This document shows positions 9,488-25,541 of a stretch of 64,000 bases of DNA, piece by piece. The stretch's first letter is position 1. Every line of letters begins with the position of its first letter. Both the position numbers and the translations under genes were made by a program. The notes under the pieces are model-generated. The model was not told where the DNA came from, did not search any database, and saw nothing but the letters and a program-made list of their open reading frames with translations. The stretch lies in NCBI GenBank assembly GCA_037442825.1, contig JBBIPN010000001.1, positions 2,325 to 66,324 on the forward strand, given 5' to 3'. This stretch comes from Sulfurihydrogenibium sp. Its GTDB lineage: Bacteria; Aquificota; Aquificia; Aquificales; Hydrogenothermaceae.

Positions 9488-9949
9488 TTATTGTAAAGGT
9501 ATATATGCATAACCTTTATTTTGCCAATTTACTAGACCTATAAATGCATTAGGGATTAGCTCCACAAAATCATATAACGTTTCTTTATTTATTTTCTTAC
9601 CTTTCATACCAGCTTCACACATTTGAAACCTAACTTTATAATTTTTAACTAAAAATTCTAACTTTAAAACTATATCTTTTTGATTTTCTAAAAGTTCTTT
9701 ATCATTTTTGTAAGGTGAGTTTTGTAAATCTTTTATAAAAAATTTGTAAGCATCTCCATGTATAATAACTACCACATTAAGTTCCTTTAACTGATTTTTA
9801 TAATACTCTGCTGAGTTAGCCAATCCACTTAATAGATAGGTATTAAATCTACTTAAATCACCAGTTGTAAGATTTATAACTACCTTTGGATTTTCATCTG
9901 CTAAAGAAATATCTATTAAAAAAAGTATTAAAAATATTAATTTCCTCAT
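9488..9949 (-). CDS. Exported DsrE/DsrF-like protein
   Basis: Signal peptide; VVIIHGDA, FQMCEAG (conserved Cys) and QNKGYAYI patterns of the DsrE-like family. Confidence 0.75.
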   Translation of the reverse strand: MRKLIFLILFLIDISLADENPKVVINLTTGDLSRFNTYLLSGLANSAEYYKNQLKELNVVVIIHGDAYKFFIKDLQNSPYKNDKELLENQKDIVLKLEFLVKNYKVRFQMCEAGMKGKKINKETLYDFVELIPNAFIGLVNWQNKGYAYIPLQ

Positions 9950-10884: not shown

Positions 10885-10895
10885 ATTTAATACCT

Positions 10896-11332
10896 CTATT
10901 TTTTAAATTTTCTCAAATCATGAACTACCATTGGTATTAATCTATATCCTTCTTCTTGAAAAACTGCAAATCCTACCACTCCAGCAGGTACAACCTCTAC
11001 AAATGGTTGTAATTTTAATTGCTCCAATCCTAAAGCTTTCATTATATTCCTACATACTTAGTTTAACTCCATATGTTTTATTAAAAAATTCTAATCTATC
11101 TACAATATCTTTATACTTATCATAGTTATCTTTTGGAAAAATTAAAACTTCTGGTCCATGAGATACTATAGCTATCTTATGTTCTTCTTACTGTTTCTGC
11201 ATCTTCTGGTTTCTCTAATGTCCAATCAAAAACTGCTTTAATTTTGTCTGGTAAGTCTACTTTAAGTTATGCTGAATAAGAATAAGAAGATATAAAAATT
11301 AACAAGATTAAAAGTTTAAATTTTTTGATCAT
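10896..11332 (-). pseudogene. Second exported DsrE-like gene, inactivated
   Basis: ATG 11332 after a strong RBS; TAA at codon 22 (11267-11269); fragments KAVFDW, KIAIVSHGPEVLIF and FVEVVPAGVVGFAVFQEEGYRLIP lie in different frames. Confidence 0.8.
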
Positions 11333-11359
11333 CTTTTTCTCCTCCCTTCATTAAAAAAA

Positions 11360-11379
11360 CCCAGGCATAAAAGCCTGGG
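11360..11379 (-). terminator. Intrinsic terminator after the porin gene
   Basis: CCCAGGC-ataaaa-GCCTGGG stem followed by a U7 tract on the minus strand. Confidence 0.8.
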
Positions 11380-11387
11380 ATATTCAT

Positions 11388-12671
11388 TTAGAATATTAAC
11401 TGTATTCCTACTCCTATATAATCTCCTGCTTTTCCATTTTGGTTTGTACCTGTATACAATGAATATGCTGATCCATTTTAATCAACGTAATGTAAATTGA
11501 GTTTTAATTTATTCTGTTTTATATACCAATTTAGCCCTACATCTGTAGTCTTAAATTTACCGTTTCCGTTTAAGCTTGAATTACTTCCTTTCCACTCACT
11601 GTATGTTATCGCTGGCTCTAAAATTGTTTTGTTTGGTAGTGTAAAGTTGTATCCTGCCCTTACATGCCATACTTTGTCTTTGTATGATAAATTTGATCTG
11701 TCATAATCTCTTTTTAATTCGTCATACTCTGTATTAAATGTAAAATCTTTGTAATTTGCAAGTATATCAAATCCTAATAGTTGATTGTTTTTAAATGAAT
11801 ATTTTGGAACATTACTCGTAAGATCAGAAGCTGTCCATACACCGCCTTTCACAGCTAATGGATAGCTGTTAGTATCTTGTGCTCTTCCTTGGTAGGAGTA
11901 GTTTACTGCTAATGTTATACCGTTTCTTTTTCCAAAGTAATTTACTTTATAACCCATTCCATATTTTTTCATCTCTGGATCACCAAGAGATAAAGCTATC
12001 CTTGCTGTGTATAGTAAGCTGTCCCCTCCTGTCCCTCCATTAAATTTGCCAGTGTTGAATATTCCAAAGTTGTAGTTTATCCCCCATTTGGATTTCTCAT
12101 CATTGTATAATCCTCCTATGTTTATACCTGTATCACGACCTGGCCCTATTCCTACTATATGTTGTCTTAGATAGAAGTTTGTTAAAGCTTTCTCAAATGA
12201 TGTTACTTCAAATCCTGCTGTTATGCTCTCTCTTCCTACTTGTGGTCTAAAGTATCCTACAGTAATGTTGGCCCAGTTTTTGTGTAAAGCGTATGTAAAG
12301 AATGCATCCCATAGATAAAATTCTTTATTATTACTATTAACACCTATTAATCCATTGTTTGATTTTGTTAAAGCAGTATGTGAGTCTAATCCTACGTTGT
12401 CATAGGCAAACCAAACTCTCCAAGATAGATTTTCTGAAATCTTTCCTTGAAATCCTACCCTAGATCTTCTTAAGAAGAAATCCACCCTGTTGTCGTATTT
12501 TGTATTGTCCTCTACTCTATCTATTGTGTAAACGCCCCAGAGTTGATTCATAAAGAAAATTTCCATTTCTCTTCCTTCACCAAAATAAAACTTTGGTGCC
12601 GCATTTGATGGTGTTGCAAGAAGTCCTGCAACAAAAAGGCTTGTTCCGATACCAAGTAAAACTTTTTTCAT
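11388..12671 (-). pseudogene. Outer-membrane porin (OprO/OprP-like anion porin) with an in-frame TAA 29 codons before the natural end
   Basis: Signal peptide; DFFLRRSRVGFQG, YLWDAF and FNTEY beta-barrel motifs; after the TAA at 11478-11480 the frame continues NGSAYSLYTGTNQNGKAGDYIGVGIQLIF*. Confidence 0.75.
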
Positions 12672-12694
12672 GTTTTTAACCTCCTATAAAATAT

Positions 12695-13327
12695 TTATTT
12701 AACAACCTCATCTATAATTTCTTTTATTTCTAAATCTAATTCTTTAAGTACTTTAATTGCTTCCACATCAAGATTTCCCATATATCTAATGAAAGTACTT
12801 GGTTTATAAGTTCCAACTACAATCTTTCCATCTTTTTCATAAATGTAAACTTTTAGTGGAAACTGTGAAGCAAGTTGTGGGTTGTTTTTTAGTATTACAG
12901 AACATTTTGATAGTTTACATACAAGGTAGATATTCATATTTTTCCAAAAGTTTTTTTCTCCTTGCTCTTCTAATCCTTTAGAAACGTGAATTATATGTAC
13001 TATCTTAAAGTTTTTATTTTCAAGTAGTGTTTGTATTGTTAGTTCTACTTCTTCTATGGATTTTGTTGTGGTTTTTTCATATATATCTGACATTTCTTCG
13101 TCTTCTGTATCTGTAGCTACTGCATTTGCAAGTGTAGATAAGAAAGATTTTTTCTCTGTGTTACTTGTAGTATTTTCTTTATTTGGCTTACTTAAACCTA
13201 TTTTTTCCTGTGGCTTTTCATCATAACCAGTTTCTAAATAATCTCCTGTTTCAAAGGATACATCTTTTATAGCACCACCACAAGAGAGTACAAAAGCAGA
13301 AAATGTTATTAAAAGTATCTTTCTCAT
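12695..13327 (-). CDS. Lipoprotein with C-terminal DUF302 domain
   Basis: Lipobox VLSC; acidic low-complexity linker; YLVCK ... PLKVYIYEKDGKIVVGTYKPS DUF302 pattern; ATGA overlap with soxB. Confidence 0.75.
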   Translation of the reverse strand: MRKILLITFSAFVLSCGGAIKDVSFETGDYLETGYDEKPQEKIGLSKPNKENTTSNTEKKSFLSTLANAVATDTEDEEMSDIYEKTTTKSIEEVELTIQTLLENKNFKIVHIIHVSKGLEEQGEKNFWKNMNIYLVCKLSKCSVILKNNPQLASQFPLKVYIYEKDGKIVVGTYKPSTFIRYMGNLDVEAIKVLKELDLEIKEIIDEVVK

Positions 13328-15057
13328 AAACATTCTCCTCTATCTGTAGGACATCCACAAACATAATCTAACACTCTTACATTTGATTTAAGTGGCGGAT
13401 TTACCTCTTTTACTCTTTTTATATAGTCTATGGTTATATCGTATACAGGTCTAAACTTCTTAGCATTTTTACCTGCTTTGTATAGATTTCCTCCCCATGA
13501 AGCTACCACGTAAGTTCTGTTCGTATCAAGGTCTTTACCATTTACCTTTATATTTGATAATCTTTGACCTGTCGGTGCTGATATTTTTATATCGTAATCT
13601 AATCCTAATGTTCTGCTCATATCTCCACCTTGTTGATAAAGTGGATTAGAGTTAAATGCATTATCTGCAACATCTTCAAGTATATTTTTAATCTGTGCTC
13701 CAGTAAGTTCAAATCTATAAACATTCGGGTATGTAATAGCTGTCATACTATAAACATCATCTACTGTTATATTATCTCCTGGTAATAACGTCGTTCCCCA
13801 TCTATAACCAGGGTTAAATACTATCTCACAGTCTGTTTCATCTTTTATTGCATCCATAATAACTCTATCAAATGTTGAGTAGAAAGTATCTCTCTTGTAC
13901 AAGATTTTTTGGGTTTTTCCAATTACTTCTGAAAGCTGTTTCTCATAAGGTTCGTAAAGTTTGTTTACTAAAGATTCTACTTCTTTATCTGGTTTTATAA
14001 AGTTTGAAGCAACTGGATAAAGTTTGTATGCAAAGTTTGTTATCTTTTTATTTTTTACTTCAAGATCAAGTCTTCCTAAATATTTTCCATGACTACCTGC
14101 TATAACTATAATTGTGTTATTTATCACAATTGGTTTTGGCGCTGGATCATGTGTATGTCCAGAAAGTATAACATCTATACCATTTACCATTTTTGCCAAT
14201 GCTTGGTCAACAGTAAATCCATCGTGAGAAAGTAAAACAACCAAATCAGCTCCTTTATTTCTTACTTCATCAACAAACTTTTGAAGTCTTTCTGGTTGTA
14301 TACCAAATGTCCATCCTTCTGTAAAATCTCTTGGGTTTGCTATAGGTGTGTAAGGAAAAGAGTTTCCAATAACTGCAACATTTACACCGCCAACATCTCT
14401 TATTGTGTAAGGTTTAAATATAAGTTCTCCCCACATATCATCAGCTATATTTTGAGATATAAACTCTGCTTTTAAATGTTTGTTTATAAGTTCTAAAACC
14501 TTTTCTTTTCCATATGTAAACTCCCAGTGACCTACCATAACGTCTATTCCAATAGCATTTTGAACTTCAACTATAGCTTGACCTTTTGTAAACAATCCTA
14601 TAGCTGTTCCTTGCCATGTATCTCCAGAATCCATAAATAAAACTTTATCACTACCTCTTTCAGCTTTTATCTGTTTTACTAAAGAAGATATATAAGCTAC
14701 ACCTCCCATTTTCCCATACTTCTTTGCAAGCTCTTCAAAGGCTATGTGTGTATCAAAATAAGCTCTAATCGTACTTGGTTTTATATTGTAGTATTTCATA
14801 AAAGCTTTACCACACAAAAACCCTGGAGTACCAATAAGTTCTTTCGCTGATATTAATGTTGAAGGTTCTCTCCAGTAAAGTGGTTTTAAATGAGCATGTA
14901 AATCGCATATATGGAGTAATGTCACATTTCCAACTGGCTTAAAATCAAAAAGTTTTTCTGGTTTAATATCGTTTAATTTTGCAAAAACGTTATCTGTAGT
15001 TAAAGATAATCCTGCTATAGCTGCAAGATGAAAAAGTTCTCTTCTTGATATATTCAT
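13324..15057 (-). CDS. soxB: Thiosulfohydrolase SoxB
   Basis: Tat motif SRRELF; CDLHAHL, DSGDTWQG, GHWEFT, LLSHDG and GHTHD motifs of the 5'-nucleotidase fold. Confidence 0.97.
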   Translation of the reverse strand: MNISRRELFHLAAIAGLSLTTDNVFAKLNDIKPEKLFDFKPVGNVTLLHICDLHAHLKPLYWREPSTLISAKELIGTPGFLCGKAFMKYYNIKPSTIRAYFDTHIAFEELAKKYGKMGGVAYISSLVKQIKAERGSDKVLFMDSGDTWQGTAIGLFTKGQAIVEVQNAIGIDVMVGHWEFTYGKEKVLELINKHLKAEFISQNIADDMWGELIFKPYTIRDVGGVNVAVIGNSFPYTPIANPRDFTEGWTFGIQPERLQKFVDEVRNKGADLVVLLSHDGFTVDQALAKMVNGIDVILSGHTHDPAPKPIVINNTIIVIAGSHGKYLGRLDLEVKNKKITNFAYKLYPVASNFIKPDKEVESLVNKLYEPYEKQLSEVIGKTQKILYKRDTFYSTFDRVIMDAIKDETDCEIVFNPGYRWGTTLLPGDNITVDDVYSMTAITYPNVYRFELTGAQIKNILEDVADNAFNSNPLYQQGGDMSRTLGLDYDIKISAPTGQRLSNIKVNGKDLDTNRTYVVASWGGNLYKAGKNAKKFRPVYDITIDYIKRVKEVNPPLKSNVRVLDYVCGCPTDRGECL

Positions 15058-15067
15058 TTTTGCCTCC

Positions 15068-15871
15068 TTATCTGACTAAACCCGGTGCTTCAATAGTTGC
15101 CCCATTTGATAAAGAAGTTACATATAACTCTAAGGCTACCATCTCTTTAGAACCTAATGGTAATACTTTCGTACTTGCTTGACTCATACATTGTTGAAAT
15201 CTTTGTTCTATTGTAAATACTTCACTTTTTGTCATTCTATAACCTGGCCAATGGGCTGCTGCTGTAGTACCTTTTAGACCATTATACTCATGACCTAAAG
15301 GATTGAGTTTCTGCATTCTTAAAACCATTCCAGCTGCGTTTTCATGACAGACAGCACAAGAAAGGTTTCTTTTTCCTCTTTTCAATTCAAAAACATATCT
15401 ACCATAGTTATAGTACTCTTTAACAACTGGGTTGGAAGAGGTATCAACATTTATTTTTTCACCGGAAGCTATATACTTCAAGTAAGTCACCAATGCTGTA
15501 TTCTCTTTGCTTTTTAAATTAAATGGTTTATCAACACCTTGATACAACTTTTGACACATCTGAATTCTCTGTTGAAGAGAGATAACAGCATTTAGTTTTT
15601 CATTGTATTTTGGATATGTTCCTACAGCTTTTTTAAGTTTATCTTCACTATGACAAGATACACATGATTTATTTGAGCTTCCCATAGGTTTATTAAAAAG
15701 CGCTCCACCAACTTCCTGTGCAAAAACTTCACCTGGATTGATACCTGATTGGTATAATTTTAAATCTTCTTCTGATATAGCTTGTCCAGCTTCTTCTGAT
15801 ATTGCTTTTATAGTAAATGATGTTATTAATACTAAAGTACCAAAAAGCAAGACTTTACCCTTTAATTTCAT
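15068..15871 (-). CDS. soxA: Sulfur oxidation c-type cytochrome SoxA (dihaem type)
   Basis: Two CxxCH motifs (CVSCH, CAVCH); HWPGYR and RFQQC axial-Cys region; ATG at 15871 follows GGAGGT. Confidence 0.95.
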   Translation of the reverse strand: MKLKGKVLLFGTLVLITSFTIKAISEEAGQAISEEDLKLYQSGINPGEVFAQEVGGALFNKPMGSSNKSCVSCHSEDKLKKAVGTYPKYNEKLNAVISLQQRIQMCQKLYQGVDKPFNLKSKENTALVTYLKYIASGEKINVDTSSNPVVKEYYNYGRYVFELKRGKRNLSCAVCHENAAGMVLRMQKLNPLGHEYNGLKGTTAAAHWPGYRMTKSEVFTIEQRFQQCMSQASTKVLPLGSKEMVALELYVTSLSNGATIEAPGLVR

Positions 15872-15902
15872 GGCAATGTTTACCTCCGTTTGTTTTTTCA
15901 AG

Positions 15903-15926
15903 AAAAAGGGCCTATAAGCCCTTTTT
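15903..15926 (-). terminator. Terminator-like hairpin between soxZ and soxA
   Basis: AAAAAGGGC-ctataa-GCCCTTTTT, perfect 9-bp stem with a U-tract. Confidence 0.7.
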
Positions 15927-15933
15927 AGATTAA

Positions 15934-16260
15934 CTAAAACTGAATGTTTATTATTTTCTCTGTAATGTCTCCTTGATTATCTTTCCAAACAATTTTAATT
16001 GGTTCTGCTTTTGTCAACTTAACATTAAAAGAAATAAACGGGTTTGCACTTACTGAACCAGAAAGTTTCATGGTAGTTATTTTTTCATTACCATAGTAAA
16101 CTTCTACATCTGTTATATGGTAAGCAGCTATATATTTTCCAGATTCTTTATCCTTTACAAGTTCAGTATCCATAGGATGCATAATAACGCTGTCAATCCT
16201 AACTATATCATCTTTCTTGTATTCTCTTGGATTAATTTTAACCATAGCTTGTTTTAGCAT
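15934..16260 (-). CDS. soxZ: Sulfur carrier subunit SoxZ
   Basis: IMHPMDT, HITDVEV, SVSANPFISF and WKDNQGD motifs; directly after soxY. Confidence 0.93.
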   Translation of the reverse strand: MLKQAMVKINPREYKKDDIVRIDSVIMHPMDTELVKDKESGKYIAAYHITDVEVYYGNEKITTMKLSGSVSANPFISFNVKLTKAEPIKIVWKDNQGDITEKIINIQF

Positions 16261-16303
16261 TTTATATCCTCCTTTTATTTATCAATTTATTTATCAATTT
16301 TTA

Positions 16304-16771
16304 TTAACCACAACCACCTATTGTTACTTTAACTGGTTTTTGAGCTTTTATAAATGTTCCGTCGTTTAGTTCTGCAACTGCTATAACGTTCATAGTCTCA
16401 GCTAATCTTATTCTTGTTGAGATGTAAGCTTTCCCATTTTGTGGAGTGAGATACACACTCATCGTGTGGGCATTATGGTTTTTATCTGCTAGTATATGGA
16501 TTGCTCTTACACTTTCAACTGGGAGCTCAATTTCAACAGTAACTGGAACAACTGCACCATTTTCTGCTATTTCTGGAGCTATAATTTTTACTTTATCTGA
16601 ATCACTTACAGATTTCCCGCCAGTGATTTCTTTTAAAACTTCCTCAAATGGTTTTTTCGGTGGTGGGTTGTCTACTAGTTGAACTGCTAAAGATTCATAA
16701 ATTAAAGAGCTTCCAAATGTTAAACTACCTACTGTTAAAGCAGCCATTTTTAAAAGTTTCCTTCTGTTCAT
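16304..16771 (-). CDS. soxY: Sulfur carrier protein SoxY
   Basis: Tat motif NRRKLL; PEIAENGAVVPV; C-terminal VKVTIGGCG swinging arm. Confidence 0.98.
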   Translation of the reverse strand: MNRRKLLKMAALTVGSLTFGSSLIYESLAVQLVDNPPPKKPFEEVLKEITGGKSVSDSDKVKIIAPEIAENGAVVPVTVEIELPVESVRAIHILADKNHNAHTMSVYLTPQNGKAYISTRIRLAETMNVIAVAELNDGTFIKAQKPVKVTIGGCG

Positions 16772-16781
16772 AAAAAACCTC

Positions 16782-17219
16782 CTAATTATTTTTCATAAAA
16801 TATTCGTTCATATCCATATTTTTATAGTTATCTGATGCGAAATAATCTAAAATTTTAAAGAAATCTTTCTCTTCCCAAGCACCAAATATAGATTTTATTT
16901 TTTTACCATCAGTTTCCAAAAAGTAAAACATAGGTGTTCCTATAAATCCATACTTTTTCCTAAACTCTATACCTTCTTTACTACATTTCCTTAATTTAAC
17001 TGGAATAAAGTCTTTATTTATCAAATCTTCCACTCTTTTACTTTCAAATACATTAAACTCCATAATATCACAGTAATGACAGGAAGGAGAATAAATGTAA
17101 ACAAGAACCAACTTATTTTCTTTCTTTGCCAAATCAAAAGCTTTCTCATAAGAAATCCAGTTTATATCAGCTTTTGCAATCCATATAAACAAAAGTAGAG
17201 GTAAAAATATTTTTCCCAT
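16782..17219 (-). CDS. Periplasmic thioredoxin-family protein (SoxW-like)
   Basis: Signal peptide; CHYC active site; GTPMFYF; located within the sox operon. Confidence 0.8.
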   Translation of the reverse strand: MGKIFLPLLLFIWIAKADINWISYEKAFDLAKKENKLVLVYIYSPSCHYCDIMEFNVFESKRVEDLINKDFIPVKLRKCSKEGIEFRKKYGFIGTPMFYFLETDGKKIKSIFGAWEEKDFFKILDYFASDNYKNMDMNEYFMKNN

Positions 17220-17223
17220 CTTT

Positions 17224-17739
17224 TTATTCCTGTGTTAGCAGATATGCTGTTAATTGGCAAACTTCTTCGTATGTTAACTGTCCTGTTGTTAGCTGAACTG
17301 TCATAATATTATAGTAAGGCACTTTTTCTAAATCTTTTGGTAATAAAACTCTTCCATCAGCTATCTTTTGATATAACCAATCAATGGTTTTTGGGTTTCC
17401 TCTATAATCTGGAGCTTTAAATAAACCATTTCTATATCCAGATAAGGATGGCCCTATATTACCACAACCTTTAGCATCTTTAACACAGTGACATGCTACA
17501 CAGTTACCTTTCTTTACTGTGTGAAAAACTTTAATACCTTTTTCTGCAAGTTTTTTTAGTGATTCTTTATCTGTTAGGTTACACTCTGGAGGAACTGCAT
17601 ATGTTCGTGACTTATCAGGTATATCTTTTAACATTGGTGTTTTTCCATCTGGTGATTCAATTCCTGCTTCATTTAAACTTAAAGCAAAAGTTAAACCTAC
17701 AGTTGAAACTACTGCCAAAAATACCTTTCTAAACTTCAT
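17224..17739 (-). CDS. soxX: Sulfur oxidation c-type cytochrome SoxX
   Basis: KGNCVACH haem motif, GNIGPSL, IMTVQ axial Met region. Confidence 0.93.
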   Translation of the reverse strand: MKFRKVFLAVVSTVGLTFALSLNEAGIESPDGKTPMLKDIPDKSRTYAVPPECNLTDKESLKKLAEKGIKVFHTVKKGNCVACHCVKDAKGCGNIGPSLSGYRNGLFKAPDYRGNPKTIDWLYQKIADGRVLLPKDLEKVPYYNIMTVQLTTGQLTYEEVCQLTAYLLTQE

Positions 17740-17775: not shown

Positions 17776-17792
17776 AGCAAATTTTATGCCAA
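17776..17792 (-). promoter_or_regulatory. sigma54 (-24/-12) promoter of the sox operon
   Basis: Minus strand TTGGCATAAAATTTGCT: GG and GC separated by exactly 10 nt, 37 nt upstream of the soxX ATG. Confidence 0.85.
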
Positions 17793-17834
17793 TTTTTAGG
17801 AGGCTATTTATAGTACTTCTCAAATAATAAACTA

Positions 17835-17869
17835 TCCAAAATGGAACAGTGTTGTCCAAAATGGAACAG
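17835..17869 (-). promoter_or_regulatory. Tandem enhancer (UAS) sites for a sigma54 activator
   Basis: Exact 15-bp direct repeat TCCAAAATGGAACAG at 17835 and 17855 (20-bp period); minus strand reads TGT-tccattttgg-ACA and TGT-tccattttgg-ATA. Confidence 0.7.
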
Positions 17870-17870
17870 C

Positions 17871-19145
17871 TTAACCAAACATCTCTCTCCATAAACCTTT
17901 TGCCCACTCTTTATATCTTTTTACAGATGATTCTTTTCTTACATTATCTTCTCTATGAATAGGTGTAACTGTCTTAGTTACTCTGTCCAACTTAAATGCT
18001 GTTTCTGACATAATAGCTTCTTTATCACTTACCATTGAATAACATATAACCATTAAAAGCTCTTCCTGTCTTGTCTTTTTACCTGTTATTCTTTCATTTA
18101 TAATACTTGCAACTACTTTACCTTGCATATTAGCACCAAAACCGGATTTTGGTAAAAATGTTCTTGCAGAATCACCGATAACAAATACATTTTTAACTTC
18201 TGTTTCAAATGTAAACGTATCTACTTCTATCCATTTCTGTCTATTTTTTAATAAACCTATTTTATAAAGTAAATTTGAAGCTTTCATAGGTGGAATTATA
18301 TTAGCTATATCAAATTTAAAATCTCCATTTGTCGTTTTTACTAATTTTTTAGTTGGATCTATCTCTTTAATAGATGTTCCTGTTATATAATCTGCATAAC
18401 CTTTATACAACTCATAGTAAGCTTTCATAAAACCTTCAGAGTTTACTATAGGTCTTTCATTTTCATCAATAAAATATAAATGTGCTTTCAGATTTCTTGA
18501 TTTTAGATAGTTTAGTAACAATGCAGCCCTTTCATAAGGAGCTGGAGGACATCTGTAAGGATAAGAAGGAACAGTTACTACAATATCTCCACCACTAAAT
18601 TCATTAATTATTTTTTTTAAAAATAGATGTTCACTACCTGGTTTAAATGCAGGCGGATAATTTATAAAAATTTCAGCCTTTGTTTCATCAACATCATAAT
18701 CTATACCTGGTGATAAAACTAAAAAGTCATAAGATACTTTGTATTTATTAGTATAAACAACCTTTTTATCAAAATCTATATTGTCCACTTCATCTTTCAA
18801 TACTTGAATGTTATGTTTTACAGTTAGGTTATTATAAGGAAAACAAAGATTAGAAAATTCCATTATATTTACTAAATATAGATTACTCATAGGACAAGAC
18901 ACAAAAAAGTCATTTTTTTCTATCAAAATAATATCTATATCTTTATTATATTTCCTTAAAGCTACTGCTGTAGTTACACCACCATAACCACCACCAACTA
19001 TAACAACCTTAGCTTTTTTTGGAGAAAGTTTACTTTCTGTAGTTTCTGATTTTACTTCATTAAACGAAAGTAAAGTTGAAGCAGAAAGTAATGCAGATGC
19101 TGTTAAAAAATCCCTCCTACTAACATTTAATTTGTTCTTTGACAT
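17871..19145 (-). CDS. Flavocytochrome c sulfide dehydrogenase flavoprotein paralogue (FccB/SoxF family)
   Basis: Tat motif SRRDFL; VVIVGGGYGG; CPMSN; YRCPPAPYER and ICYS catalytic cysteines. Confidence 0.9.
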   Translation of the reverse strand: MSKNKLNVSRRDFLTASALLSASTLLSFNEVKSETTESKLSPKKAKVVIVGGGYGGVTTAVALRKYNKDIDIILIEKNDFFVSCPMSNLYLVNIMEFSNLCFPYNNLTVKHNIQVLKDEVDNIDFDKKVVYTNKYKVSYDFLVLSPGIDYDVDETKAEIFINYPPAFKPGSEHLFLKKIINEFSGGDIVVTVPSYPYRCPPAPYERAALLLNYLKSRNLKAHLYFIDENERPIVNSEGFMKAYYELYKGYADYITGTSIKEIDPTKKLVKTTNGDFKFDIANIIPPMKASNLLYKIGLLKNRQKWIEVDTFTFETEVKNVFVIGDSARTFLPKSGFGANMQGKVVASIINERITGKKTRQEELLMVICYSMVSDKEAIMSETAFKLDRVTKTVTPIHREDNVRKESSVKRYKEWAKGLWREMFG

Positions 19146-19836
19146 ATTTACTTACCTCCATAGCAACAGATTTTTCTACCATTTCTGTAGCTTTCTCAAA
19201 ATCTCCATACAACTCTATTAAATCTGATTTATATATATCTAAAAACTCTTCAAATTGGCTAGGTCCTACAACAGCTGTTGCATAAATATTTCCATTTTCT
19301 TCTACAAGTTCAACATAGGCTAAAGGTAGTTCTGCTGGACCTTCCATTACTTGACCACCTTTTTTTACATCAAAAACAGACATATGTGCGCAACATTGTA
19401 TAACACCGCTTTTCCCTGTTGTAGCAGATTTTTCCGTAGGTGGATAGTAATTGAAAAGCGAAAAATCTTTATTTGGATAATTCCACTGATGAGGACATAT
19501 TGCACTATAAGCAACGATACTTTTATCTTTTCCTATACCTCCATTAAACTGATAATCTTTACCACTATCTAATTTTATAGTCATTGGTTCAACTTTATCA
19601 CCTAAATTTATAATATAACAAGGTGTAGATTTAAACGGGTAATGGAAAAGTAATACAGTGTATGGTAATAGATCAGAAGTTTTTAAAGGTTCACCATTTT
19701 CTTTTACCAACAATGCTTTTTTATAAGTTTTATAAAGTTCTTTTTCTGCAGCAATTAATTTAGTAAAAAGAGTAGAATCTATCATCATTCCAGCAGCTAT
19801 AGCTGAACATGTCTTAAACAATTTCCTCCTATTCAT
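19120..19836 (-). CDS. Tat-exported Rieske [2Fe-2S] protein
   Basis: NRRKLF Tat motif; AYSAICPHQ (CxH) and QCCAHMSVFD (CxxH) boxes; GPA-x2-PL. Confidence 0.85.
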   Translation of the reverse strand: MNRRKLFKTCSAIAAGMMIDSTLFTKLIAAEKELYKTYKKALLVKENGEPLKTSDLLPYTVLLFHYPFKSTPCYIINLGDKVEPMTIKLDSGKDYQFNGGIGKDKSIVAYSAICPHQWNYPNKDFSLFNYYPPTEKSATTGKSGVIQCCAHMSVFDVKKGGQVMEGPAELPLAYVELVEENGNIYATAVVGPSQFEEFLDIYKSDLIELYGDFEKATEMVEKSVAMEVSKYVKEQIKC

Positions 19837-19863
19837 CTTAGAACCTCCTATATATATAAAAAA

Positions 19864-19883
19864 AGGGGGCTAAAAAGCCCCCT
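19864..19883 (-). terminator. Intrinsic terminator after fccB
   Basis: AGGGGGC-taaaaa-GCCCCCT followed by a U-tract on the minus strand. Confidence 0.8.
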
Positions 19884-19916
19884 CTCATTAAACTATGTAT
19901 TATAGAATTATTTATA

Positions 19917-21564: not shown

Positions 21565-21593
21565 AATATAAATCATCTTTAAGTTATTGTCAA
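21565..21593 (-). promoter_or_regulatory. sigma70-type promoter of fccAB
   Basis: TTGACA-N17-TATATT on the minus strand. Confidence 0.75.
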
Positions 21594-21599
21594 ATACAT

Positions 21600-21661
21600 A
21601 TTTAAATTAGTATATTTACATAATTTAAATTAGTATATTTATATATTTAAATTAGTATATT
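21600..21661. repeat. Three direct repeats ATTTAAATTAGTATATT
   Basis: Exact 17-mers at 21600, 21623 and 21645, immediately upstream of the fccA -35 box. Confidence 0.85.
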
Positions 21662-21748
21662 AATATTAACCTTTTTTTATTTTTATTAGAATATACATGT
21701 AAAAATTATTAATTATATTAATATGATTATTAATATATAATATTGTTC

Positions 21749-23068
21749 TTATAATAAACCAAAGTTCTTCATCTTGGTTCTTAACTGCTTCCTTGATATA
21801 CCTAATTTTTGAGCTGCCCTTGTTTGATTAAAATTTTCTTCTTCAAGAACTTTTAATATTACTCTTTTTTCTATTTCATAAAGATTTAAATTATCTTTAT
21901 CTAATATAGTATCAACTTTATTTTTAAAACTATTTTTTACTCTATCAGGTAAATGATCTACGTTAATTATCTCTCCCTGACATAAAACTACTGCCCTTTC
22001 TATAACATTTTCAAGCTGTCTAACATTTCCTGGCCAATCGTAATTAACAAGAACATCTAAAGCTTCCTTATCAATATCATAAATATTTTTCCCATTTATT
22101 TTGCTAAATTTACTAATAAATTTTTCAACAAGTAAAGATATATCTTCCTTTCTTTCTCTTAACGGTGGTATTTTTAAGTGTATTACGTTTATTCGATAAA
22201 ATAGATCTTCTCTAAATTCTTTATTTTCAACCATTTCTTCAAGATTTCTATTTGTTGCAGATATAAACCTGCATTTTACTTTCACTAATTCTTTTCCACC
22301 AATTCTAAAAAATTCTTTCTCTTGTAAAACTCTAAGTAATTTAGCTTGCATAAAAAGTGGCATATCTCCTATTTCATCTAAAAACAATGTTCCTTCTTCT
22401 GCAATTTCTATCTTTCCTATCTCCTTATTTAATGCTCCAGTGTATGCTCCTTTTTCATGTCCAAAAAGTTCATTCTCAAATAGGTCAGAAGGTATAGCAG
22501 AGCAGTTGATTGCTATAAAAGGCTTATCTTTTCTTTTTGAACGTTTATGGATAGCTTTAGCTACAAGTTCTTTTCCTGTCCCACTTTCTCCTTCTATAAG
22601 TATTGAAGATTCACTTTTACTAACAATATCAATTTCTTTAAAAAGTTCTCTCATCTTTTTACTTTTTCCTATTATTCCTTCAAATTCAGATTCTTCAAAT
22701 TTTTTTTCTTGTTTTTCTTTATAAAACTCAATAATCTTAATTAAGTTATCTGTATCTATAGGTTTTGGTATATAGTGATTTGCTCCTTTTTTTACCGCAT
22801 CTACAGCTCCATTTATAGAACCATAAGCTGTAATAATAATAAAAGGTGTATTAATATCAATTTTCCTAAAATATTCTAATATTTCTATCCCTGTCCCATC
22901 TTCTAAAAGAAAATCTGAAAGGATAAGGTTATATTGATTTTTAGATATTAAGTTTAAGCTGTCAGTTTTTGTTTTCGCTATATCAACACTGTATCCAGCT
23001 TGAGTTAAAACTGTTTTAATAACTCTTAATATACTTTCTTCATCATCAATAAGTAGAATCTTAAACAT
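21749..23068 (-). CDS. sigma54-dependent response regulator (NtrC family)
   Basis: Receiver domain (LLIDDE, ILSD, ITAYG); GESGTGKE; GAYTGA; LFLDEIGD; RFISATN; WPGNVRQLEN; Fis-type HTH. Confidence 0.96.
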   Translation of the reverse strand: MFKILLIDDEESILRVIKTVLTQAGYSVDIAKTKTDSLNLISKNQYNLILSDFLLEDGTGIEILEYFRKIDINTPFIIITAYGSINGAVDAVKKGANHYIPKPIDTDNLIKIIEFYKEKQEKKFEESEFEGIIGKSKKMRELFKEIDIVSKSESSILIEGESGTGKELVAKAIHKRSKRKDKPFIAINCSAIPSDLFENELFGHEKGAYTGALNKEIGKIEIAEEGTLFLDEIGDMPLFMQAKLLRVLQEKEFFRIGGKELVKVKCRFISATNRNLEEMVENKEFREDLFYRINVIHLKIPPLRERKEDISLLVEKFISKFSKINGKNIYDIDKEALDVLVNYDWPGNVRQLENVIERAVVLCQGEIINVDHLPDRVKNSFKNKVDTILDKDNLNLYEIEKRVILKVLEEENFNQTRAAQKLGISRKQLRTKMKNFGLL

Positions 23069-24617
23069 TTCTTCTAACCTTTATAGGTAGTTCTATTATA
23101 AATTTAGTGTATTTACGATACTCTGAATTTAAATTTATTGTTCCTCCATTTAAGAAAACGATTTTATAAACCATTGGTAAACCAAGACCTGTACCTTTTG
23201 GTTTTGTAGTAAAAAATGGTTTAAATATCCTTTCTTTATGCTCTTGTTTTATTCCTATCCCATTATCCTCTATAGTTAAAACGATTTTTTGTTTATTATC
23301 TACAAAACTGGTTTTTATTTTTATATATCCATCGTCTATATTTTTTTCTTTTATAGCATCTATAGAATTAAGAACAAGATTTACAATAGCTTGTTTTAGT
23401 AAGTTATCATCTAAAAAAATCAAAGGTAAATTTTCATCTAACTCTAAAATAAGTTTTATATTGTTATCTTCACAATCATAAATTAAAAGTTTAACAGAAT
23501 CTTTTACAACTTCATTTATATCTGTCAGTTTAAAGTTTGGTTCTATAAGTTTAGAGAAATTTAAAAATGATATTGTCATATCATTAAGTCTATTACTTTT
23601 TTCTTTTATAATTTTCCCAAACTCTCTTATTATTTCATCTTTAGAATTATTTTTTATATAGTTTGCTGCATTAGATATAGAATAAAGGGCATTTTTTATT
23701 TCATGTGCTATTTTTGCACTCATCTCCCCCATAGTAGCCATACAACGCAGTGTTTCCCTTTCTTTATAAGCTTCTTCAAGTTTCTTTATATAATCATTTA
23801 ATGATGCAACCATTATATAAAAACTGTAAGTAAGCTTGTCTACCTCATCTCCAGTGTATTTATTAAATACTTCACATTTAGAACACTCTTTAATAGCAAT
23901 TTCTCCTATATTTAAAAGTATGTCAGCTGAATCTTTTGAAGCTAACCAGCAAGTATCTAAAATATTTTTAATACACTCTCTATCATTTTTTGAGATTGGT
24001 TTTATATCTATTATTGTATTTAGATTATTAAAATCTTGAACAAATAAATTTAAAATTTTTTCTTTCAAATTTACAAGAGGTCTTACATTATAAGAAGAAA
24101 TTAAAAATATACCTACAAAGGAAGCAAAAAATATAAATAGTATTACTAAAGATAGGGGATATATAATATTTTCTATATCTTTGGCAAGTTCTTCTTTAAT
24201 AGTATCTTCATCGTAAAAGACAATTATTTTTCCTATAACATCATCACCAACGTCAAGATTAAAATAAAAAGATTTAAAACTTTGTTTGGTAAATCCAGTA
24301 TAAATTTTCCCTATATAAGATATATTTGAACTTCCAATTATTTTCCCCTCTTTGTCTGTTATAAAAACTTCTTTAACAGATTTATTTTTCATAACAAAAT
24401 TGACTAATTCATCTATCTTCTCAAAATTTTTAACAACTATTTTCTCTTTATAGCTTTCTGATAAACTAATAATATTATCTTCTAATGATTCAATTCTATC
24501 ATTTAAAATTTTTCCATAGAAACTATAGACAGTTAAAATCATAGAAGCAAAAAGAATAACTAATATATAAATTGAGATTGATAAAGATGTTTTAATCTTT
24601 ATGGATAAATTTTTCAT
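23061..24617 (-). CDS. Membrane sensor histidine kinase with a Cys-rich insert in HAMP
   Basis: Two TM segments, small periplasmic domain, HAMP, AHEIKN H-box, N-box, EDNGIG, PFFTTK and GTGLGL. Confidence 0.93.
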   Translation of the reverse strand: MKNLSIKIKTSLSISIYILVILFASMILTVYSFYGKILNDRIESLEDNIISLSESYKEKIVVKNFEKIDELVNFVMKNKSVKEVFITDKEGKIIGSSNISYIGKIYTGFTKQSFKSFYFNLDVGDDVIGKIIVFYDEDTIKEELAKDIENIIYPLSLVILFIFFASFVGIFLISSYNVRPLVNLKEKILNLFVQDFNNLNTIIDIKPISKNDRECIKNILDTCWLASKDSADILLNIGEIAIKECSKCEVFNKYTGDEVDKLTYSFYIMVASLNDYIKKLEEAYKERETLRCMATMGEMSAKIAHEIKNALYSISNAANYIKNNSKDEIIREFGKIIKEKSNRLNDMTISFLNFSKLIEPNFKLTDINEVVKDSVKLLIYDCEDNNIKLILELDENLPLIFLDDNLLKQAIVNLVLNSIDAIKEKNIDDGYIKIKTSFVDNKQKIVLTIEDNGIGIKQEHKERIFKPFFTTKPKGTGLGLPMVYKIVFLNGGTINLNSEYRKYTKFIIELPIKVRRNV

Positions 24618-25423
24618 TTTAAAACTGGGAAAAGGTCAAGTATTTTTCTATAGTTTTTTATTATTTCAAACATTTTTGGTTTTGGTTTTTCAAAGCCATC
24701 AATTTCCATACTCTTTAATGTTTCTTTATCTACTGTAAAAAGTGCTTTTTCTATTTGGTTATCTAAATTTTTATCTAAATTTTTATCAACCATTATAATA
24801 TGTCTTGGAAAAGAAGGTGATTTAGCTATAACTCTAAGCTGAGATTGATAAGGTATTAAACTTTCTTCTCTAATACCAGCAACATCTGCAACACCTGCTA
24901 AAAGTGATAAAATAGCACCTTTGTCTGTCCCAGAACTCCATATATTTACTACATCTTCCTGTGTAATACCAGCATTCGTAAGCATGTACAATGGCATAAC
25001 ACAGTTACTCATACAAATTGGACTACCAAGTGTTATTTTCTTTCCTTTCACATCACCTATAGACTTTATATTACTATCCTTTTTTACTACTAAAACACCA
25101 TTTTCAACAGCTTTTCCGTTTATTTTCATAACAGCTACTGCCTCTACGTTAAACTTCCTTTTCAACTCAAAATATACAACTGAGCAACCAACAGCTAAAT
25201 GAGCTTCTTTCTTTTTAAATAACCTATAAACTTCATCTACTTTTTCTACTATAATAACTTCCACTTCTTTATTTAGATTTTTAGATAGATATTTAGATAA
25301 CGCTGAATATCTTTTATATTCTTCAATAGGATTTCCATAAGATAAAACCACAAAGTTTAATCGTTCCTGTGCAAAAGATATACTAAATATACTGAATATA
25401 GCAATAATTATTTTTACAATCAT
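24614..25423 (-). CDS. Periplasmic binding protein, PhnD/phosphonate-binding fold
   Basis: Signal peptide; GVLVVKKDSNIKSIGDVKGK, LLAGVADVAG and KSPSFPRH patterns; ATGA overlap with the kinase; no ABC permease nearby. Confidence 0.85.
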   Translation of the reverse strand: MIVKIIIAIFSIFSISFAQERLNFVVLSYGNPIEEYKRYSALSKYLSKNLNKEVEVIIVEKVDEVYRLFKKKEAHLAVGCSVVYFELKRKFNVEAVAVMKINGKAVENGVLVVKKDSNIKSIGDVKGKKITLGSPICMSNCVMPLYMLTNAGITQEDVVNIWSSGTDKGAILSLLAGVADVAGIREESLIPYQSQLRVIAKSPSFPRHIIMVDKNLDKNLDNQIEKALFTVDKETLKSMEIDGFEKPKPKMFEIIKNYRKILDLFPVLK

Positions 25424-25541
25424 GGAAATAATATATTACAAAAACATTAAGTTAGCAAATACTAAGTTTTTATAAACTTGAAAGATAAAAAAAAGGAAAT
25501 ATTTTTAGATTTGAAAAAACATAAAAAAGAAGGTAGTAAAA

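Follow-up and report, generated by a model that had tools for sequence, protein, structure and literature searches.

A candidate three-component system with a free PhnD-fold receptor upstream of the predicted sigma-54-dependent sox operon of Sulfurihydrogenibium

Sensing of Sox substrates is, to our knowledge, known for few systems (SoxR, a CsoR-type regulator, TspSR, SulRS), and we know of no dedicated periplasmic receptor described for it. Free periplasmic binding proteins regulate membrane kinases in TorT/TorS/TorR and LuxP/LuxQ, and in the tetrathionate and thiosulfate kinases TtrS and ThsS a PhnD-like periplasmic module senses the sulfur oxyanion. The locus described here is a trio of genes at positions 21749-25423 of a 64,000-nucleotide stretch of DNA from Sulfurihydrogenibium sp. 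(GenBank assembly GCA_037442825.1, contig JBBIPN010000001.1, positions 2,325 to 66,324), and the whole of that stretch is referred to as the window. The G+C content of the window is ~28%, and its source assembly comprises 1.35 Mb and is 99% complete. Unless another locus or contig is named, coordinates are those of the window and the features given with them lie on its minus strand. Two described systems come closest to the trio. TspS/TspR of Acidithiobacillus exerts sigma-54-dependent control of sox, and the TspR site of A. caldus is given as TGTCCCAAATGGGACA, as reviewed in PMC6335251; TspS is reported to carry an sCache_3_2 periplasmic domain (PMC12194929). In AioX/AioS/AioR, and alike in ArxXSR and ArrXSR, a free PhnD-like receptor is combined with a kinase and a sigma-54 activator, the genes being ordered X-S-R, and the pocket of AioX is formed by Tyr88, Cys106, Tyr131, Ser161, Ser163, His192 and Asp210 (PMC5908839).

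The first gene of the trio (24614-25423) codes for a secreted binding protein (SBP) of 269 amino acids (aa) with a PhnD/PtxB fold, a Sec signal peptide and a match to PF12974 (Phosphonate-bd, E 2e-50). It is followed by the genes for a sensor histidine kinase of 518 aa (23061-24617; Pfam HisKA and HATPase_c) and for a TspR-like sigma-54 enhancer-binding response regulator of 439 aa (21749-23068; Pfam Response_reg, Sigma54_activat, AAA_lid_14 and HTH_8). In a preliminary description of the window the three genes were said to be linked by ATGA-type overlaps; this holds for the SBP/kinase junction, a true ATGA overlap of 4 nt, and not for the kinase/regulator junction, where 8 nt (ATGTTTAA) are shared. 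The same description placed the trio directly upstream of fcc and sox genes with no ATP-binding cassette (ABC) permease or ATPase beside it, and both statements were borne out. On the same strand, 3' of the trio, are found genes for a small cytochrome c, FccB, a Rieske protein and a second flavoprotein resembling flavocytochrome c sulfide dehydrogenase (FCSD), and then soxX-trx-soxYZAB. Upstream, on the opposite strand, lie genes for Memo, AMMECR1 and MoaA, and no gene for an ABC permease or ATPase adjoining the trio was found among the neighbouring genes. Close homologues of all three proteins were found only in Sulfurihydrogenibium, Persephonella and other Hydrogenothermaceae.

The following path is proposed. 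In the periplasm, the Sec-exported PhnD-fold SBP would detect a reduced inorganic sulfur species, in a cleft to which one lobe would contribute C80 and the other C137 and C141, together with acidic residues. It would then dock on the kinase, the product of the translationally coupled next gene, at the small Cache-type domain that the kinase exposes to the periplasm, and the kinase would phosphorylate the NtrC-type regulator. The binding sites of the regulator would be a pair of TGTYCC-N4-GGRACA palindromes situated some 50-90 nt 5' of a -24/-12 promoter, and ATP-driven opening of the sigma-54 holoenzyme complex at soxX would lead to expression of soxX-trx-soxYZAB-DUF302-porin. The parts of this path are held with different degrees of confidence. 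The step from regulator to promoter is judged very probable from the comparison of sequences; a signalling role for the SBP is likely, and a sulfur compound is also the likely ligand of that protein; the complete statement, from SBP through kinase and regulator to the switching on of sox, is favoured on balance, with somewhat less assurance than either of the latter two. We infer the signalling from SBP to kinase, the identity of the ligand as a reduced sulfur species and the sign of the regulation.

The evidence for the regulator-to-promoter step lies in front of soxX, where a sigma-54 promoter and enhancers had been noted in the preliminary description and were confirmed. The predicted promoter, TGGCATAAAATTTGCT (17776-17791; TGGCAT-N5-TTGCT), was identified by a pattern scan 36 nt before the soxX ATG and is the sole zero-mismatch match to the -24/-12 pattern TGGCAY-N5-TTGCW in the 64-kb window; a slightly looser pattern gave 7 matches in the 1.35-Mb genome, and rpoN is present in that genome. 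An exact 15-nt repeat, CTGTTCCATTTTGGA, occurs twice, 20 nt apart (17835-17849 and 17855-17869), each copy being the core of an imperfect palindrome (TGTTCC-N4-GGAYA). The distal palindrome, the putative enhancer or upstream activating sequence (UAS) TGTTCCATTTTGGACA (17853-17868), matches the published TspR UAS type; the proximal one, TGTTCCATTTTGGATA (17833-17848), is placed 20 nt from it, and a second site at a distance of 20-33 nt is kept in relatives. When the genome was scanned for TGTYCN-N4-NGRACA, the soxX site was the single intergenic match, the remaining two falling inside pstS and an NPD-like gene.

Relatives were sought by a degenerate-pattern scan for the SBP, with one genome per species, and the loci were then compared by tblastn with the window proteins. 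The SBP was found in 18 species of Hydrogenothermaceae, with one distant match in Nitrospirota. A synteny search for the trio next to sox, as suggested in the preliminary description, gave adjacency to soxX in seven loci among those with enough flank. The trio is followed directly by soxX-trx-YZAB in two of them (L004, L005) and is separated from sox by an fcc/Rieske insert in three (L001, L007, L008); in the other two (L009, L015) it is rearranged and still beside sox, with the regulator gene divergently transcribed. All seven carry, before soxX only, a pair of TGTYCC-N4-GGRACA palindromes with a spacing of 20-33 nt, together with a -24/-12 element, and the same arrangement still precedes soxX in three genomes in which the trio is unlinked from sox, which brings the total to 10 other Hydrogenothermaceae genomes. 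A strict paired-enhancer pattern gave no match in four unlinked-trio genomes and was too strict, since degenerate but clear pairs were seen when soxX upstream regions were read directly. Because the enhancer pair and promoter are conserved in these 10 genomes, chance is excluded as their explanation. The enhancer in L008 and L015 is exactly TGTCCCAAATGGGACA, and the window sites differ from it at two positions. Comparative genomics could thus, in our view, lend no more support to the predicted regulator-to-soxX link. The trio and the enhancer were not found near sox in the seven genomes checked of Aquificaceae, in which SoxB is widespread.

Among 178 Aquificota genomes the SBP is confined to Hydrogenothermaceae, where it occurs in 33 of the 50 family genomes. 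SoxB is encoded in 32 of those 33 and is absent from 13 of the 17 without the SBP (table 32/1/4/13; Fisher p 8e-8, a value uncorrected for phylogeny). A full-length orthologous kinase was lacking in all six SBP-less genomes tested, four of which are 99-100% complete, and one SBP-less genome, 55% complete, has a partial N-terminal kinase match beside a broken soxB. To judge from this distribution, SBP and kinase behave as a single evolutionary unit that is specific to Hydrogenothermaceae. A complete genome of the same genus (G142, locus L163) has the sox operon and lacks the SBP, the orthologous kinase and the enhancers; upstream of its soxX (L163 11290-11700), the usual region has given way to unrelated sequence that is richer in G+C and contains short tandem repeats, and the genome represents a natural loss of the module.

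The kinase is laid out as a first transmembrane segment (TM1), a periplasmic divergent sCache_3-like domain of ~115 aa, a second segment (TM2), a cytoplasmic linker with four cysteines (Cys4), HisKA and HATPase_c. The periplasmic segment matches sCache_3_2 only below the threshold, with E 0.012 in the window protein; this family is the commonest sub-threshold match of the segment, obtained with 8 of 12 kinase orthologues at a best E of 1e-4. The juxtamembrane Cys4 motif, C-x8-CW...C-x2-C (kinase residues ~214-248; 23870-23980), is invariant in 11 orthologues and may provide a second input (redox, metal or sulfane-sulfur). A related kinase in L026 carries a different Cys-rich insert in its HAMP region.

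The regulator is composed of REC, an AAA+ domain with GAYTGA loop and Walker motifs, and HTH_8. Relatives of its DNA-binding domain in other phyla adjoin genes for TusA, YeeE and rhodanese; in L026, where TusA, YeeE and rhodanese genes lie alongside, the gene for a tandem PhnD protein precedes those for an sCache_3_2 kinase and a related sigma-54 regulator. A scan of metagenome DNA for the exact TspR-type 16-mer returned mostly chance matches, with ~13 of 120 stretches near a homologue of a window protein, mostly kinase or regulator genes, and kinase-regulator pairs were recovered whose regulators are 48% identical to that of the window. In L113 (3540-3700), and also in L092 and L040, the 16-mer is followed, ~95 nt downstream, by a -24/-12 promoter on the minus strand that drives the gene of a PMT_2-like membrane protein together with that of a YeeE-type sulfur transporter. 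A plus-strand -24/-12-like match overlaps this promoter and lies upstream of the 16-mer. Across the 16-mer from the promoter are found the genes for the 48%-identical regulator and its kinase, and no binding-protein gene accompanies them. Since relatives adjoin TusA, YeeE and rhodanese genes and the 16-mer precedes a YeeE operon, the regulator family appears to be tied to sulfur metabolism across phyla.

Exactly two PF12974 proteins are encoded in the genome, the sox-linked SBP and a bona fide AioX. The latter belongs to a full arsenite-oxidase cluster on contig C31 (7355-14435, partly covered by L020), in which aioB, aioA and the AioX gene are followed by those for a PAS kinase (aioS) and a sigma-54 regulator (aioR). 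This AioX matches that of NT-26 with E 4e-35, and each of the seven residues published for the pocket is retained in it. The range of aioXSR is given in PMC5908839 as some Alpha- and Betaproteobacteria only, and would be extended by this Aquificota cluster. The sox-linked and Aio paralogues are 22% identical in the binding protein, 27% in the kinase (in an alignment that covers the periplasmic segment) and 38% in the regulator.

A family profile of the SBP scored 99 bits on PtxB, 63 on ArrX, 49 on PhnD and 25-27 on AioX. With an AlphaFold2 model (pLDDT 89), PtxB and ArrX were the best PDB folds, ahead of AioX and PhnD; the Foldseek comparison with PtxB gave E 7e-24 and a TM of about 0.72. Because profile and fold are closer to PtxB and ArrX, the SBP is placed outside the AioX clade. 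That its best sequence and fold matches include the transport proteins PtxB and PhnD, and that its source annotation reads phosphonate ABC transporter substrate-binding protein, could suggest a subunit of a phosphonate or phosphite importer encoded elsewhere, lying beside the kinase gene by chance. This is considered extremely improbable. The PhnE permease is absent from the 99%-complete genome, its sole weak match being PstA of the pst operon, and the NCBIfam scores are far under the PhnD and PtxB-type cut-offs (TIGR01098, 94 versus 112; TIGR03431, 86 versus 261), and on these two counts a transporter subunit was rejected. In addition, the C-x-S of the SBP motif GSxIC[MA]SNCVMP stands where PtxB has its S-T-S anion loop, the loop being replaced by C-[MA]-S-N-C, and the synteny of SBP and kinase is conserved, the SBP being found in the 18 species and the two genes overlapping in most loci.

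Residues C80, C137 and C141 of the SBP are invariant in 16 sequences at 46-100% identity, as is the block L-G-S-x-x-C-x-S-N-C-x-M-P-L. The ligand pocket was mapped by aligning the SBP with the genome's own AioX (22% identity) and chaining this to the alignment of that AioX with the NT-26 protein. Two of the seven AioX positions are kept (Cys106 as C80 and Ser163 as S139) and five are changed: Tyr88 corresponds to a variable V/Y, Tyr131 to E107, Ser161 to C137, His192 to D167 and Asp210 to E187. In the AlphaFold2 model, three helices (81-91, 138-150 and 167-175) have C80, C137/C141 and D167, respectively, at their N-termini, the location of cleft residues in the PhnD fold. When 1.84 billion cluster representatives were searched, the Hydrogenothermaceae SBPs appeared as one representative (411 bits), and the next matches, at 193 bits or less, included tandem two-domain PhnD proteins and single-domain proteins. 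Cysteines at the positions of C80 and C137 are kept in the representative matches P0163, P0165, P0166, P0169 and P0173. An Fe-S cofactor in a Tat-exported SBP was also considered and judged unlikely, the signal peptide having no twin-arginine motif.

As modelled, a cleft of thiols and carboxylates would argue against simple oxyanion binding, and would fit either a reaction in which nucleophilic or sulfane sulfur takes part or a ligand that is thiophilic or neutral. One specific form of this, put forward tentatively and thought rather unlikely, is that the SBP is a covalent Venus-flytrap sensor, in which C80 of lobe 1 and C137/C141 of lobe 2 would react with sulfide, or with sulfane sulfur in the form of polysulfide or persulfide. 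Formation of an inter-lobe tri- or tetrasulfide bridge, or opening of a resting disulfide, would then lock the closed, kinase-activating state. If true, covalent sensing would mean that periplasmic binding proteins can recognise ligands by a chemistry new to them, the SBP would be the first extracytoplasmic counterpart of the cytoplasmic sulfane-sulfur sensors of the SqrR/CstR/FisR type, and the PhnD-like clade that keeps the C80/C137 pair would be a family of such sensors.

The same residues raise the question of whether a real three-component system might respond to a thiophilic cue, non-sulfur or mixed, that is coupled to sox; examples are arsenite, antimonite, thioarsenate and soft metal ions. 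Three pocket thiols with carboxylates are classic ligands for soft metals or As(III), C80 aligns with the arsenite-binding Cys106 of AioX, and the organism, as read from its aioBA cluster, oxidises arsenite; thioarsenates, moreover, are abundant in sulfidic hot springs. We nevertheless think such a cue quite improbable, less so only than a transporter role is. A dedicated AioXSR with all seven pocket residues is already present in the genome, whereas the SBP keeps the equivalents of Cys106 and Ser163 alone; the regulon found consists of sox only, the presence of the SBP tracks SoxB, and the relatives of the regulator adjoin sulfur-trafficking genes.

Besides the lack of phylogenetic correction noted above, several points weigh against a path from a sulfur-sensing SBP to sox. 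The pocket mapping consists of a 22%-identity alignment and of secondary-structure position in an AlphaFold2 model, and the predicted pocket (C80, E107, C137, S139, C141, D167, E187) would be acidic, a property hard to reconcile with an anion like thiosulfate. TspS of Acidithiobacillia and the relatives of the L113 type function, or seem to function, with no SBP. In four Persephonella-type genomes no kinase gene adjoins the SBP gene, which is co-operonic with two genes for secreted DsrE-like proteins, and a 50%-identical full-length kinase is encoded on another contig; such split loci could mean that the SBP has a non-signalling role.

These points bear on the alternative that the locus is an ordinary TspS/TspR-type two-component system in which the Cache domain of the kinase senses, the SBP being a co-expressed periplasmic binder or carrier of sulfur that works with DsrE-like proteins and SoxYZ. 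Its attraction is that the SBP gene of Persephonella-type loci follows one or two DsrE-like genes, that related kinase-regulator pairs with the same enhancer have no SBP, that TspS is described as sensing through sCache_3_2 (PMC12194929), and that three reactive cysteines would suit a carrier. We consider it improbable, at about the level given above to covalent sensing, in view of the overlap of the SBP stop with the kinase start in most loci and of the joint gain and loss of SBP and kinase in the family genomes. The nearest functional precedents for an orphan PhnD-fold protein beside a kinase and a sigma-54 activator, AioX and ArrX, are sensors, and in G007, the sole split Persephonella locus inspected, the kinase gene lies beside one read as recombination-nuclease- or transposase-like, which would suggest a secondary rearrangement. 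A role of the SBP in signalling to the kinase continues to be preferred.

Genes for secreted DsrE-like proteins were seen in L010, L011, L012, L013, L015, L016 and L018, one or two of them directly before the SBP gene and in the same operon in the Persephonella-type loci. In the window, a secreted DsrE-like protein is encoded at 9488-9949, at the far end of the sox cluster.

The target operon (11478-17739) begins with soxX (17224-17739) and continues with a thioredoxin-like gene (16782-17219), soxY (16304-16771), soxZ (15934-16260), soxA (15068-15901), soxB (13324-15057), a DUF302 gene (12695-13333) and, last, a gene for an OprO/P-type porin (11478-12671). It ends in a hairpin and T-run near 11353-11380. 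Further 3' of the porin terminator (10885-11350), short stop-broken reading frames resemble the remnant of a decayed gene.

To let the trio drive fcc and sox together would be too broad a reading: the sigma-54 elements are confined to the soxX operon and do not extend to the unit of cytochrome c and fccB. That unit has a near-consensus sigma-70 promoter, TTGACA-17-TATATT (21565-21593), abutted by three direct repeats with the core TTTAAATTAGTATAT at a spacing of 22-23 nt (21595-21666), and it ends in a strong terminator (19861-19886). The repeats are unrelated to the soxX enhancers and are probably the operator of a different regulator. Sigma-54 control of fccAB was rejected on the grounds of its own sigma-70-like promoter and terminator; with the repeat array, these mark fccAB as a unit of its own, inserted between the regulator gene and the target operon. 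Also inserted between the regulator gene and soxX is a pair (17871-19836) of a Rieske protein (238 aa, with weak matches to SoxL2 and to the arsenite-oxidase small subunit) and the second FCSD-like flavoprotein (424 aa), whose genes overlap; the pair is kept together with cytochrome c-FccB in L001, L007 and L008.

Upstream of the SBP gene a weak sigma-70-like promoter, TTGCTA-17-TATATT (25430-25458), was identified by consensus match only. Autoregulation of the trio was considered and rejected as improbable, because the region upstream of the SBP gene, 25430-25458 included, has neither an enhancer nor a -24/-12 element.

The module offers a small, secreted candidate receptor of thermophilic origin together with a defined output promoter, so that the sensing step is directly testable. 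Its predicted pocket, lined with cysteines and carboxylates, is unlike any characterised site of the PhnD family and may show how reduced sulfur is recognised outside the cytoplasm. With AioXSR and the sox trio in one genome, a natural pair is available for the study of how two paralogous lines of receptor, kinase and activator are insulated, and of the way in which XSR-type modules changed target between arsenic and sulfur, in one direction or the other. The components are also possible parts for a thermostable biosensor of sulfur species.

Among the described systems, SulS/SulR of Sulfurimonas hydrogeniphila (Campylobacterota), described recently, is a two-component system encoded upstream of soxXYZAB that activates these genes on thiosulfate through two direct-repeat sites (PMC12936845). 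Unlike the window trio it is of the EnvZ/OmpR type, with no sigma-54 and no binding protein, and it is an unrelated, functional analogue only. TorT/TorS/TorR and LuxP/LuxQ differ in that their binding-protein families, sensor folds and regulators are unrelated to those of the trio. In TtrS and ThsS the PhnD-like module is fused to the kinase and the regulators are of the NarL/LuxR type, whereas the trio has a free protein and a sigma-54 activator; the window kinase matches TtrS in the kinase core only (73 bits versus a cut-off of 750).

With AioXSR the trio shares the gene order X-S-R, an orphan PhnD-fold receptor, a membrane kinase and a sigma-54 activator, and the lack of a cognate transporter. 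The equivalent of the pocket Cys106 of AioX is kept as C80, and the kinase of the genome's own AioXSR has the same type of periplasmic domain. The trio differs in its linkage to sox (seven loci) or to DsrE-like genes, in place of arsenite oxidase or arsenate reductase, in a pocket with Y131E, S161C, H192D and D210E and a variable Y88, and in its predicted target, which is sox and not a molybdoenzyme.

The likeness to TspSR extends to an NtrC-type regulator gene upstream of soxX(YZAB), to sigma-54-dependent transcription of sox (predicted in the window), to the enhancer TGTCCC-N4-GGGACA (identical in L008 and L015, two positions off in the window) and to a kinase with two transmembrane segments, whose periplasmic sensor may, on sub-threshold matches, also be of the sCache_3 type. 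On the enhancer and the domain type, on which orthology rests, regulator and kinase look like members of the TspSR lineage. In contrast to the two components of TspSR, the window system adds a secreted PhnD-fold protein whose gene overlaps that of the kinase; its kinase has the invariant cytoplasmic Cys4 linker, and its hosts belong to the phylum Aquificota, family Hydrogenothermaceae. In evolutionary terms the trio would be a TspS/TspR-type circuit, with the same enhancer and probably the same type of sensor domain, joined to an AioX-like free receptor. The preliminary description, in which the system was called a candidate undescribed one and AioXSR is not mentioned, has to be narrowed accordingly: sigma-54 control of sox (TspSR) and the free-receptor design (AioXSR) were both published, and neither the merger of the two nor the cysteine-rebuilt pocket was found in the literature searched. 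Both halves of the system are thus already known; its novelty lies in the union of a circuit of the TspSR type with a receptor like AioX and, as predicted from the alignments, in a ligand pocket rebuilt with three invariant cysteines and acidic residues.

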